64,000 nt of DNA from Octopus vulgaris (Eukaryota). The position numbers were made by a program, and so were the translations under genes. Positions 3,113-62,748 of this stretch are shown here, one piece after another. Position 1 is the stretch's first letter. Each line of letters opens with the position of its first letter. The stretch is taken from assembly GCA_951406725.2 (NCBI GenBank), contig OX597820.1, positions 97,464,001-97,528,000 of the forward strand, written 5' to 3'. Below the pieces are notes generated by a model. That model was not told where the DNA came from. It made no database searches and saw only the letters and a program-made list of their open reading frames with translations.

Positions 3113-3151
3113 CTGCTACTCAAGAGTTTCACGTTCCCGTTCGTCGGGCAA
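3113..3151 (-). ncRNA. Minimal type-I hammerhead ribozyme motif (U4C core)
   Basis: Minus strand reads ttgc-CCGACGA-acg(ggaa)cgt-GAA-actc(tt)gagt-A-gcag. All three stems can be drawn; GUA cleavage triplet. Confidence 0.7.
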
Positions 3152-3429
3152 TTTTTTTCGTAATGTTGTTGCACTTTTAATAAAAAAAACTATATATATA
3201 TATATATATATATATATATATATATATATATATGATGTGTGTGTGAGTATGGATATGTATGTGTTTATACATGTATACATGTTTACACGAGTGTGTGTGT
3301 ATATATGTATGTTTATAAATATGTATTTGTTTATATATAATATATGTAAGTTTACACGTTTGTATATGATATATAGATGGATGTGAATGAAAGTATGTGA
3401 GTGAGTTGGTATGTGTCTATGTGTATACC

Positions 3430-3660
3430 TATTTCTTTATTATCCACAAGGGGCTAAACATAGAGGGGACAAACAAGGACAGACATAGGTATTAAGTCGC
3501 TTACATCGACCCCAGTGCGTAACTGGTACTTGGTTTATCGACCCCGAAAGGATGAAAAGTAAAGTCGACCTCGGCGGAATTTGAACTCACAACGTAACGG
3601 CGGACGAAATGCCGCTAAGCATTTCGCCCGACGTTCTAACGTTTCTGCCATCTCGCCGTC
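3430..3660 (-). mobile_element. tRNA-derived SINE family 2 (Nin-domain-like)
   Basis: Reverse complement of ...gagttcaaattccgccgaggtcgacttt(g/a)c(c/t)tttcatcctttcggggtcgataaa..., which recurs many times in the window. Confidence 0.85.
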
Positions 3661-4029
3661 CATGTGTATACCTTTAGACATATTTATCTGTGCTTCCATG
3701 TATGTAATTTTCTGCGTATTTATGAACACACATACACACACGCACTTTGCATGTAAATGTGTCTATTTTGTGCCCCCAGCATGATTGTAGCTTTAAAGCT
3801 GAAACAAGTTAAAGGAAGTTTTATAATCATATAAACATGCACACACACACACACACACACACACACACTCACACACTCACACACACACACACACACACAC
3901 TCACACACTCACACACTCACACATGTTCGCATATATTTACAGACATGCGTTCAGCTACGTATATCTGTTTATCTATCTATCTATCTATGGTACTACTTGG
4001 GAACAGTGGGCCCGGTGCGCGCATCCGCG

Positions 4030-4220
4030 CTAGTTAGTCGTGACTAGTCGATCCTACAACGGCTACCTAGCAAAGTAAATAAAACACAAAATCACAAAGT
4101 AAATTTTTTTTAAAAACAAAGTACATAACACAAAAAACACAAAGTAAGGATCGACTAGTCATGACTAGCTAAGCTCCAGCATGGATCGACTAGTCATGAC
4201 TATCTATGCTCCAGCATGGC
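4030..4220. repeat. Inverted repeat (tagtcgtgactagtcgatcct / aggatcgactagtcatgacta) with a local direct duplication of the right arm
   Basis: Arms at about 4036-4056 and 4147-4168. The right arm plus ctccagcatgg is repeated at about 4182-4220. Confidence 0.7.
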
Positions 4221-5204
4221 CATAGTTTAATGACTGAAAGAAATAAAACATAATTAGGGTTATTCCGAAGTACATGTTACCGAGACAATCACACAATCAT
4301 ATAAACCCTGTACATGAAAGGAAACCTATTACACACACACGCACGCACACACACACACACACACACAGACACACACACACACACACACACACAAACAAAC
4401 ACATGCACACGTCTTCATAAACATATACAAACACACACAGGCACGCACACACACACACATACATGCACGAACGCACACACACACACATATAACATGACAG
4501 TGGTGGAAACTTAATCACACTACAGACACGTGTTTTCAACGTCTTAAGAATGCGAATTGGGTGGCGGTTGAATGACGAAATGTCATGTGTGTATGTATGT
4601 ATGTATGTATGTATGTATGTAGAGTTGTGTGTATATATATATATATATATATATATATATATATATATACAGGCGTATATGTATATGCGTTTGTTTGTTC
4701 CATGTACGTTTTTCTTCTTCCATACATCTGGTCCTTAATATGAAGTACGCATCTTGTATGTTTATTTGTTTATGTACATTATGTATATTGAATATATATA
4801 TATATATGTATATAAGCTCATGGTGTGACTGCGTGGTAAGAAGCTTGCTTCCCAACCACTTGATTCCGCGTTCAGTCCCACTGCATGACACCTTGGGCAA
4901 ATGTTTTGTACTATAGACTTTGGCCGGCCAAAGCCTTGTGAATCGAAATGGTAGAGGAAACTCGTATATATGTGTGTTTGGGTCCGAAAGAAGACTGCCG
5001 TGATGCATACATACATACCTGTATATATATATATATATATATATACTTACATGCATACATATATATATATGTATATATATATATATATATATATATATAC
5101 ACTTACATGCATATATATATATATATATATATATATATATATATATATATATATACAGTATATATATATATATATATACATACATGCATACATATATATA
5201 TGCA

Positions 5205-5745
5205 TCTTTTATCGTTTACTTGTTTCAGTCATTAGACTGCGGTCATACTGCAGCAACGCCTTGAAGTTTTAGTTGAATCGACCCCAGTACTTGCTTTTTA
5301 AATCTGGTACTTATTCTATCGGATCCTTTTGCCGAACCGCTAAGTTACTTGGATGCAAACACACCAACACCGATTGTCAAGCGGTGGTGGTGGGACAAAC
5401 ACAGATATAATGGCTTGTGCACGTGCGCACACACACACACATACGATGAGCTTCTTCTAGTTTCCGTCAGCCAAATCCCCTCACAAGACTTTGGTCGACC
5501 CGTGCCTATAGTAGAAAACTAAAGTCTTGTGAGGGGATTTGGCTGACGGAAACTAGAAGAAGCTCATCGTATGTGTGTGTGTGTGTGCGCACGTGCACAA
5601 GCCTTTATATCTGTGTTTGTCCCACCACCACCGCTTGACAACCGGTGTTGGTGTGTTTGCATCCAAGTAACTTAGCGGTTCGGCAAAAGGATCCGATAGA
5701 ATAAGTACCAAGGTCTCACGCAGTGAGGCTGAACCGGGAACCATA
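5205..5745 (-). mobile_element. SINE family 1 copy containing a ~190-bp fold-back inverted duplication
   Basis: Arms 5305-5492 and 5521-5710. SINE sequence resumes at 5711. Confidence 0.9.
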
Positions 5746-60069: not shown

Positions 60070-60617
60070 TCCCCTTATTTCGCTCTCGCGTCTCATGTTT
60101 GATCTTTGACCTCTGGCCGAAATCAGATCGCCATGTTGATTCGTTAGCTACTGCACGCATTTTTTCTCTCCTTCTTTCTGTGTATTTCTCTCTCTGTGTA
60201 TCTTTCTGTTGAAGAGCGTAGGCTCGAAACGTTAAAGACTTGTTTTATTTATATTTCCTGAGCGCCATACTAATACAATTGTTCGTTTGTTTTCCACCTG
60301 CCTTCGTCTTTTGTTTATTTTCATAAAGCTTCCCGTTATATATATATATATATATATATATATATATATATATATATAGTGTGTGTGTGTGTGTTCGAAG
60401 TCAGGACGCCATGATAGATCGTTAGCTCCTACACGCATTTTTTCTCTCCTTGTTTCTCTCCTTGTTTTTTTTCTGTGTATCTTTCTGTCGATGAGCGTAG
60501 GCTCGAAACGTAAAAGACTTGTTCTATTTCTATTCCTGAGCGCTATACTAATACATTTGTTTGTTTGTATTCCACCTGCCTTCGTCTTTTATTTATTTTC
60601 GTAAACCTTCCCGTTAT
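60070..60617 (+). mobile_element. Two tandem family-B hammerhead-like repeats separated by (TA)n; motifs at 60201-60238 and 60480-60517
   Basis: tcttt-CTGT(T/C)GA-(a/t)-gagc(gtag)gctc-GAA-acgt-(T/A)-aaaga. The downstream ttcctgagcg..atactaatac is shared with family A. Confidence 0.65.
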
Positions 60618-60796
60618 ATATATATATATATATATATATATATATATATATATATATATATATATATATATATATATATATATATATATAATATATGTAT
60701 ATGTATATATAATATATGTATATATATATAATTTCCTTCACCTCACTTTCTATTTTGTATCATATCTAAATTAACTATTAATTATTCTCTCACACC

Positions 60797-60848
60797 GTCT
60801 CCGATGAAGGGATATGATAAATAAATATCCTGGAAACAGCTGTAAGAC
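60797..60848 (+). ncRNA. Type-I hammerhead ribozyme motif (U4C core)
   Basis: gtct-CCGATGA-a-gggatat(gataaataa)atatcct-g-GAA-acagctgt-A-agac. Confidence 0.7.
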
Positions 60849-61120
60849 CTTCTATTTATAAATGTTCTAAAATCTACTCAGCCTTGGTTTTTATCTCATT
60901 ACGGAAAAAAATTATATATATATATATGTGTGTGAGTGGGTGTGTGGGTGTGTGTGTATTCTTTTATTTTTATTTGTTTCAGTCATTTGACTGCGGCCAT
61001 GCTGGAGTACCTATGTATATATGATATATATATAAACATTAAAAAATGCCACCCACACGTGCGTGGGGGTATGGGTATGTTTGTAAGCGTGTGCGTGTGT
61101 GTATGTGTAATGCCTTCAAT

Positions 61121-62472
61121 CTGTCCTTCAATCCTGCGACGAACTGGCTTCCTGCTCAAGGAGAGTGTTGTGATCTCGGTTACTCATACGCCATGGAAAC
61201 CGGGATATAGGATTTACATGTAGGCGCCTTTGTGTGTATACATATATACATACATATGTATAGTCATAAGAATGGAGTCAAACCAAATAGTAATATTTTG
61301 AAATCATTTAATACATATATATATATATATATATATATATATAACTCATGGCATGAACGACATACTCTACTGATTTAATTTTATTATGTATAATTAATTA
61401 TAATTATAGATCGTTAAAAGAAGTGCCCCAGCGTGGCCGCAGCCGAATGTCTGAAGCCATTTATAGAGAATATGTGAAGTAGGAACACTAGAAAGCTTTC
61501 GGGAACTATTTTTCTTCTATTTTTTAAATTGTGATTGGACTACGGCCATACTGGGGCACCGCCTTGTCGAATAAATTGACACCAGTACTTATTTGTTTTT
61601 TAAGGCCTATTTATTCTATCATGCTGTTTGCTAAACCATGAAGTTACGGGAACGTAAACCAGCCAGTACCGGTTTTCAAGCACAAAAACGAAGTCATGCA
61701 TGCATACGTACGGAATCTTCCGTCGAAGATGACATGTAAGTGTTCAGTTTTTGCTGAACTATTTGCACAGATGATATGTTTATAGTGGTCAAATGTATGT
61801 GCTGTACATTAGTCCACTCCCTCCATCAACTCGACATTGTCTGAACATGTGCACAAGAACGAAATGGGGTCGCAGGGTAACGTGAAATGAAGAGTTTTGC
61901 TCAAAAATACAACGCGCGCTCTGTCCAGGAATCGAACCCACGGTCAAGCGATTGTGAGTGTAATACCCTAACCACGATACTTTCTCTATCCGTCTATTAT
62001 CCTGAACCGCTAACTCGAGCGGTGCTTCAGATTTGCTCAAAAATACAACGCGCGCTCTGTCCAGGAATCGAACCCACGGTCAAGCGATTGTGAATGCAAT
62101 ACCCTAACCACGATACTTTCTCTATCCGTCTATTATCCTGAACCGCTAATTCGAGCGGTGCTTCAGATAAATTACTAACACAAAAGACGCATGCGCGCGC
62201 ACACACACAGGTGATATTACATCAAAATATTAATTATAATTATATACATTCTCAATAAGGCGACGAACTGGCGGACTCTGTCCTTCAATCCTGCGACGAA
62301 TCGGCTTCCTGCTCAAGGAGAGTGTTGTAATCTCGGTTACTCATACGCCATGGAAACCGGGCAATAGGATTTACATGTGGGCGTGTTTGTGTGTATACAT
62401 ATATATACATACATATGTATAGTCATAAGAATGGAGTCAAACCAAATAGTAATATTTTGAAATCATTTAATA
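61121..62472. repeat. ~190-bp dispersed direct duplication (61121-61313 and 62278-62472)
   Basis: Near-identical blocks offset by ~1157 bp. Confidence 0.85.
61896..62167 (-). repeat. 136-bp tandem duplication covering the tRNA-like head of a third SINE family
   Basis: Units 61896-62031 and 62032-62167. The minus strand carries tggttagg...gggttcgattcc A/B boxes. Confidence 0.8.
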
Positions 62473-62590
62473 TATAGCACGTTTCAGGTTTGTGTGATAT
62501 ATAATGTACAAGATACATAATATCTTAACGTTCCATAATATATATATATATATATATATATATATATATATATATATATATATATATATA

Positions 62591-62748
62591 GTTAATCCAA
62601 ACAAGAAAGCACAAAAAAAAACACAACAACGCGAGGACGTGGAACAAATATAGTATTTTTGGGCGCTCAGGAAAGAAGGAAAGAAGGAGTGTTTAACGTT
62701 TCGAGCGGAGGTCTTTGTCGGAAACATAGGAGAAGGGAAGACAGAGGA
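62591..62748 (-). mobile_element. Family-A repeat with decayed HHR (62691-62725)
   Basis: Minus strand gttt-CCGACAA-a-gacctccgctc-GAA-acgt-T-aaac. Confidence 0.7.

Follow-up and report, generated by a model that had tools for sequence, protein, structure and literature searches.

The stretch analysed here (the window; 64,000 nucleotides of Octopus vulgaris, assembly GCA_951406725.2, contig OX597820.1, positions 97,464,001 to 97,528,000 of the forward strand) opens with a SoxF-like gene. A 678-codon frame at 366-2402 stops within the first half of an HMG box, the coding exon matches positions 1-37 of the Pfam profile HMG_box, the best Protein Data Bank matches of the HMG-box frame are SOX17/SOX18, and the remaining half of the box is located downstream, in the stretch L068. 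Between the two halves runs a single intron of 72,851 nt, in which an earlier prediction made from the sequence alone (herein the original prediction) had placed 16 hammerhead ribozyme (HHR) motifs; we find each of them where it was said to be, on the strand given, and all 16 inside this one intron. Nine of the 16 are very probably the HHR-bearing 3' ends of Penelope-like elements (PLEs) that encode a reverse transcriptase (RT) and a GIY-YIG endonuclease, and a shared origin is likely for the remaining seven. All 16 are likely to have entered the intron at its (TA)n tracts as aborted copies and are probably inert today.

Hammerhead layouts within the intron

Verification of the motifs depended on the descriptor (family labels A-J and the hammerhead numbering are the usage of this analysis). 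Without an extra nucleotide between A9 and G10.1 a descriptor gave 0-2 matches, and the absence of this nucleotide is the reason that our initial descriptor came back nearly blank. In a strict layout (CUGANGA with one optional nucleotide after A9), two copies pass, against a mean of 0.05 in 100 local dinucleotide shuffles. A relaxed descriptor, which was tuned after the motifs had been inspected and which allows C4, U6, G3-C8, U3-A8 and one extra nucleotide on either side of stem II, is passed by 11 of the 16 (3113, 8138, 9168, 20280, 23682, 36369, 36610, 56031, 60201, 60480 and 60797), against a shuffle mean of 0.15 and a maximum of 1 (40 shuffles). The other five (7352, 17073, 20208, 53178 and 62691) have broken stems or a broken core and have decayed; the other members or the majority sequence of their families retain the hammerhead layout. 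The 16 motifs are confirmed as genuine and of the dimer-type minimal kind found in Penelope elements and retrozymes.

A GAAA box is present in all 16 motifs and a CUGANGA box in seven (9168, 20208, 20280, 36369, 36610, 7352 and 53178), and only four of the 11 passing copies (9168, 20280, 36369 and 36610) carry the canonical box; variant boxes occur in B (U6), E (G3-C8), and C, G and four A copies (C4). Helix I of 3-7 bp together with helix II of at least 3 bp is formed by 11 of the 16 window copies and, across the loci collected for each family, by 24/29 in A, 19/19 in B, 14/19 in E, 19/19 in F, 12/19 in G, 9/19 in D, 4/19 in C, 1/14 in H and 0/14 in I. The extra nucleotide between A9 and G10.1 and the G10.1-C11.1 pair are present in A, B, E and J; C and H are without that nucleotide, and F and G leave one base unpaired on each side. 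Stem III reads ACGU (A and B), AUGU (36369), AAUAUU (E), ACAUAUGU (F), ACAGCUGU (G) or ACUCGGAGU (D) and, as had been proposed, is palindromic or one central base off in 10 of the 11 passing copies (the exception, 3113, pairs at 8/10). The reported association with TA repeats also holds, with a (TA)5+ tract 80-213 nt downstream of C3 in 14 of the 16 motifs. The estimate of about nine repeat families is correct if 36369 (74% identical to A) is merged with A, and each of the nine has 134-3035 first-look candidates genome-wide. A scan of seven loci at Rfam gathering scores gave no matches, and the best 150 matches of an Rfam scan of the window (498 more lie below) consist of microsatellite-driven miRNA matches and one tRNA fragment.

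That the motif class is already known, as the original prediction acknowledged, is borne out by the minimal HHRs described in the pseudo-long terminal repeats (pLTRs) of metazoan PLEs (Cervera and De la Pena 2014, PMC4209133). The octopus motifs share with these the type I layout, a short helix I, the extra nucleotide after A9, G10.1-C11.1, a palindromic 15.2-16.2 region, the presence of many families per genome and the predominance of solo copies of truncated elements. Unlike the published motifs, whose representatives in Fig. S3 of that study are CUGANGA or UUGANAA/UUGAAGA and include no cephalopod, octopus families carry U6 (B), G3-C8 (E) or C4 (most of A, C and G) family-wide, and in D, F and G one additional nucleotide stays unpaired 5' of G12. 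In the same study most motifs were solo, and monomers were not cleaved and dimers only to a low extent. Elsewhere among cephalopods, 235 Rfam hammerhead matches are given for the giant squid (PMC6962438), and recently active Penelope families have been reported in Octopus vulgaris in a paper that contains neither "ribozyme" nor "hammerhead" (PMC13282606).

Parent elements of the repeat families

In family A, all 29 best-scoring loci share one 3' end, which lies at (TA)n, and the 5' ends are ragged, extending for tens of nucleotides to 3 kb. Its longest copies contain ~1.9 kb of CA-rich sequence and, upstream of this, an RT and GIY-YIG frame; open reading frame (ORF) remnants upstream of A copies in L065 and L063 have DKG, RYIDD, a C-x4-C-x2-C linker and a GIY-YIG-type motif. 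In family B, the locus L154 preserves a pLTR-ORF-pLTR unit, with two ~680-bp repeats 4,547 bp apart around an RT-endonuclease frame, its ORF broken across three frames, and the ORF end lies upstream on the same strand in 10 of 19 B loci. The B ORF matches the Pfam profiles RVT_1 (E=2e-6) and GIY-YIG (E=0.003), both below gathering scores, and has 106 longer homologues, the best of them 56% identical. The RT fragments of the A and B clades are 73% identical, and both clades show the features given for Neptune-type elements (RT with DKG, C-terminal GIY-YIG, CX2-5CxxC linker and CCHH). The first of the two window copies of the B clade (C3 at 60206) matches 18 other loci at ~100% over 237 bp, and this near-identity marks it as a recent insertion. 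A long B copy with most of the ORF also lies ~25 kb past the window, on the minus strand (L069:5668-7967) and downstream of the second HMG-box exon.

The parent of family E encodes a 1025-aa RT-endonuclease frame, followed by a 1-kb 3' untranslated region (UTR) and then the G3-C8 motif, and has a 1.78-kb inverted arm; its motifs are DKS and a C-x3-C-x2-C linker, and its endonuclease is C-terminal. We considered whether E could be a Naiad element with an overlooked hammerhead and rejected this, since a C-terminal endonuclease and DKS stand in place of an N-terminal endonuclease and DKA. Long copies of family F have an endonuclease tail upstream that is 35% identical to a 955-aa Hydra-type ORF (L240), and 1.8-kb inverted arms. 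The F parent was seen as this endonuclease tail alone, and the Hydra-type motifs were read in the L240 ORF: RWK-like and DKT motifs, a CxCX5C linker, and CxxC and CxH around conserved E and N. On these motifs, A and B would be Neptune-type (RT and GIY-YIG), E a third, unplaced lineage and F the bearer of a Hydra-type endonuclease tail, labels that follow published motif descriptions (PMC8557442) and not a tree; Nematis has the same linker as Neptune (PMC8557442).

Some further observations concern these elements. Four E loci (L135, L144, L145 and L241) have a branch-point-like pyrimidine-rich stretch before the motif and an AG 22 nt before the core; in the Penelope element of Drosophila virilis an intron is reported to end at the hammerhead (PMC4209133). 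In a PLE family related to the E parent, several loci keep a 1312-aa frame without interruption and dozens of copies score equally well (e.g., L243, C15:42992800-43000300); to judge from these copies, the family looks very recently active. A hammerhead-like motif at its 3' end (L243, ~5090-5140), read by eye, apparently has C for A at position 9. The unbroken 955-aa Hydra-type frame (L240:414-3278) lies directly behind a family A stub and TA tract.

The long copies are pLTR-ORF-pLTR or inverted-arm units, whose 3' end is fixed and adjoins (TA)n, with the hammerhead 80-210 nt away from it. Most other copies retain just 130-270 nt of the 3' side, break off raggedly at the 5' end and are frequently accompanied by a truncated mate in inverted orientation (13/19 E, 12/19 D, 6/19 C, 5/19 F and 4/19 G loci). 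From PLE biology, the endonuclease would nick a (TA)n tract and the RT would copy the RNA from near its 3' end by target-primed reverse transcription; inverted 5'-truncated mates are a hallmark of PLEs (PMC8557442). In the donor transcript, the two pLTR hammerheads would pair through the palindromic stem III, and cleavage would be slow and probably aided by the protein that the element encodes. These families resemble the endonuclease-bearing (EN+) PLEs of the Neptune type and Hydra clade (Craig et al. 2021, PMC8557442) in their RT with C-terminal GIY-YIG, CX2-5CxxC or CxCX5C linker, DKG or DKT motif, pLTRs, inverted 5'-truncated mates and (TA)n targets, and differ from them in their long CA-rich 3' UTRs (~1.9 kb in A and 1 kb in E). 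The original prediction had described a radiation of non-autonomous HHR elements; this is mostly wrong, because families A, B, E and F, with nine of the window's copies, are 5'-truncated 3' ends of autonomous RT/endonuclease PLEs.

Beyond the motif-based labels, several results weigh against this account. Parent ORFs for C, D, G, H, I and J (seven copies) were not found in ~1.5 kb of flank on each side. The stems are conserved, but covariation in an alignment of 13 homology-selected A/B/J representatives does not rise above shuffles (215 of 500 as high); stems do differ between unrelated families, as the original prediction noted, but those families were selected by structure. The window is also unexpectedly rich in these motifs: exact anchors number 13,063 (A), 20,098 (B) and 7,068 (E) genome-wide, and six of them fall in the window against 0.92 expected (P=4e-4). 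When scaled for (TA)n density the expectation rises to 3.6 (P=0.16), a value that relies on a small 90-kb random sample (nine 10-kb stretches) and on families chosen for occurring here. Descriptor matches per 10 kb number 1.72 in the window, 0.71 in neighbouring DNA, 0.49 in the flanks of the loci and 0.11 in the random set, and (TA)6+ tracts 35, 23, 15 and 9, respectively; per 100 (TA)n tracts there are 4.9 motifs in the window, 3.1 in neighbours, 3.4 in flanks and 1.2 in random DNA (window versus flanks, p=0.31). The excess is therefore largely a matter of (TA)n density, and a residual local excess of A/B/E motifs may exist.

Features of the window

The features of the window are collected in table 1. 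By tblastn with six PLE protein pieces, no PLE coding remnants were found inside it.

Table 1. Gene parts and hammerhead-family copies, in window coordinates (+, plus strand; -, minus strand;., strand not assigned).
Feature	Coordinates	Strand	Remarks
SoxF-like coding exon	453..2328	+	ends in first half of HMG box; start codon inferred
SoxF intron with all 16 motifs	2329..64000, on to window-coordinate 75179	+	72,851 nt total
Extra 5'-truncated copy, another HHR family	2602..2697	+	CUGA box lost; additional to the original prediction
Family C copy	3015..3155	-	C4 core, stem II ACG/CGU; C3 at 3147; ~80% identical to relatives
Family I copy	7325..7481	+	old, decayed stems; C3 at 7357
Family A (Neptune-type) 3' stub	8038..8221	-	C4 core, intact stems; C3 at 8168
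Family A 3' stub	9098..9304	+	canonical minimal HHR; C3 at 9172
Family A stub truncated 3' of hammerhead	16658..16725	+	no HHR
Family A stub	16977..17124	-	broken stem I; C3 at 17103
Family D copy	20167..20275	-	inverted mate of 20280 copy; C3 at 20262; fails descriptor
Family D copy	20280..20363	+	C3 at 20284; passes relaxed descriptor
Family E 3' stub	23667..23811	+	G3-C8 core; C3-position at 23689
Family E 3' tails, inverted pair	25841..25984	.	without HHR
Family J copy (74% to A)	36291..36447	-	canonical core, AUGU stem III; C3 at 36399
Family F 3' stub	36558..36739	+	long stem II; C3 at 36614
Family H copy	53176..53306	+	old (75-81%), broken stem II; C3 at 53184
Family A stub	55961..56166	+	C4 core, weakened stems; C3 at 56035
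Family B (Neptune-type) 3' stub	60069..60336	+	U6 core; near-identical to 18 other loci; C3 at 60206
B-clade stub (86% to 60206 copy)	60396..60614	+	U6 core; C3 at 60485
Family G copy	60732..60930	+	C4 core, ACAGCUGU stem III; C3 at 60801
Family A stub	62591..62754	-	G8A and stem II mismatch; C3 at 62721

Several sequencing-run contigs match solely 60202-60241 and then diverge into other flanks. Another repeat on the minus strand (19780-19940), present also in L061 and L064, has a degenerate stem-II/GAAAC and then a second CUGAAGA box, and flanking DNA holds at least 10 further hammerhead families (L099, L179, L118, L119, L127, L011 and L024; L068, L072 and L233), two of them with a U3-A8 core known from Schistosoma PLEs. 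A tRNA-like fragment (43539-43594, minus; 41.7 bits, above the Rfam gathering score) ends at a TATG/TA run and is probably a tRNA-derived repeat or pseudogene. Tandem copies with units of 249, 136 and 140 bp (28027-28743, 61896-62168 and 59175-59445) are probably short interspersed element (SINE)-like repeats, and a 108-aa frame (54594-54920, minus) without a Pfam match presumably resembles the C-terminal end of an RTE-type long interspersed element (LINE).

Core variants and the fate of the motifs

Exact matches in the B-type context number 17,610 with U at position 6 and 723 with any other base; the first 100 of the latter have C (72), A (19) or G (9), a spectrum that fits decay of U (here and below, the first 100 matches are the leading places on contig C1, a non-random set; bases in the B-type sets were counted by eye). 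Among A/B/J subfamily representatives (13 aligned, mutually <85% identical, out of 17 cluster representatives, four having been dropped for deletion or loss of the motif or truncation), nine have U6, three A6 and one C6, and conservation reaches 94% in core columns, compared with 62% and 76% on the flanking sides. In family E, 93 of the first 100 of 7,068 matches combine G3 with C8, and C4 is found in 74 of the first 100 matches of family A and is in the majority in C and G too. In the master elements the core is constrained, and yet several successful lineages carry the non-canonical U6, G3-C8 or C4. Changes at the same core positions are known from nature (A6C, U4C and U3-A8; Perreault et al. 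2011, PMC3088659; PMC7151607), where they are rare single cases in phages or viroids, whereas the octopus U6 is the majority of a clade with more than 17,000 exact copies.

The published CUGANGA descriptor fails to pick up the B (U6), E (G3-C8) and A (C4) cores. We tentatively suggest, as an idea that we ourselves consider doubtful, that the U6 core of the most abundant Neptune-type clade and the G3-C8 core belong to working, probably protein-assisted ribozymes that CUGANGA searches do not see, in which case PLE hammerheads would be undercounted and elements said to lack them might carry variants. In Anolis, a PLE hammerhead is reported to cut only with the element's protein, and a C3G/G8C double mutant partly rescues it (PMC11167929). 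It is quite possible, though short of an even chance, that the variant cores (U6 and C4) are instead catalytically dead and that the fold is retained solely for binding by the element's protein or for signalling in transcription or packaging. A6C slows cleavage strongly in Mg2+, by orders of magnitude, and not in Mn2+ (PMC7151607; for the loss in Mg2+ also PMC3088659), U4C reduces activity in vitro (PMC3088659), insertion of the Anolis PLE in vitro is independent of cleavage and proceeds with catalytic mutants of its HHR (PMC11167929), and dimers of only one of nine Xenopus motifs were cleaved, leaving eight uncut (bioRxiv 10.64898/2026.07.22.740005); the need for hammerhead cleavage in Penelope transposition is an open question (PMC8557442, PMC11167929). 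A dead core sits poorly, however, with the pattern of constancy in B: in the first 100 of 20,098 matches anchored only on stem II and GAAAC, C3 (98), U4 (97), G5 (97), U6 (96), G8 (95), A9 (100) and U16.1 (100) are each 95-100% constant, whereas N7 and H17 (A 79, U 19), the two free positions of the hammerhead core, vary. In the exact B-type matches, again counted by eye, N7 is U (40), A (24), C (21) or G (15). CpG decay is ruled out as the source of A and G at N7, and family E likewise retains the 3-8 pair through a double change.

A rival close to the original prediction, under which the families would be non-autonomous, like retrozymes, and would multiply as small circular RNAs with the aid of PLE proteins, we regard as improbable. 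It draws on family D, which at one locus (L157) occurs as at least 34 tandem units, 109 bp long, each with one type I hammerhead and none with an ORF, so that D resembles, as read from DNA only, the head-to-tail, protein-free units of animal non-LTR retrozymes (Cervera and de la Pena 2020, PMC7229834; bioRxiv 10.64898/2026.07.22.740005). The 109-bp monomer lies below the 150-450 bp of the former study and inside the 51-972 bp of the latter, which also derives retrozymes from PLE pLTRs, and a nested double hammerhead can be drawn across two D units, although it is predicted to lie 9.3 kcal/mol above the minimum free energy (MFE). This protein-free tandem arrangement was seen in D alone, the D copies of the window are an inverted pair and, unlike retrozymes, the other families are not tandem; moreover, A, B, E and F lie in line with ORFs and break off raggedly on the 5' side, and few mates are on the same strand (0-2 per family among 14-29 loci). 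Still more remote is the notion that the sense-strand hammerheads have been retained to cut or regulate SoxF pre-mRNA, which we consider extremely unlikely. The reported ten sense copies are there (against six antisense), and two B copies (60206 and 60485), the only close same-strand pair in the window, lie 279 nt apart with matching ACGU palindromes; the special link that this count implied finds no support, given that strand bias is absent (p=0.45), motif density is largely explained by (TA)n and there is just this one close same-family sense pair. The nested double hammerhead of the pair can be folded, but is predicted to lie 11 kcal/mol above the MFE, one partner (60206) is a recent insertion, and five copies have decayed. 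Nothing points to a host function in SoxF regulation, and solo intronic stubs, having neither partner nor element protein, should not cut SoxF pre-mRNA at a meaningful rate.

Under the PLE origin that we prefer, it is unremarkable that a genome with so many Penelope elements and TA repeats should have an intron packed with hammerheads. The motif class, the pLTR link, TA targeting and tandem retrozymes are already in print, and what would be new is the core chemistry, U6, G3-C8 and C4 at very high copy number. In the literature searched, we found no natural U6 hammerhead and no octopus PLE hammerhead; the PLE hammerhead variants of Lunse, Weinberg and Breaker (2016) may already cover these cores. 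The sister Neptune-type clades, which differ at core positions 4 and 6 and each have more than 13,000 copies, amount to a natural experiment. If U6 dimers do cut, the core rule and the search descriptors would have to be broadened; if no cutting occurs, a family with recent activity would show that selection acts on the fold and not on the chemistry.

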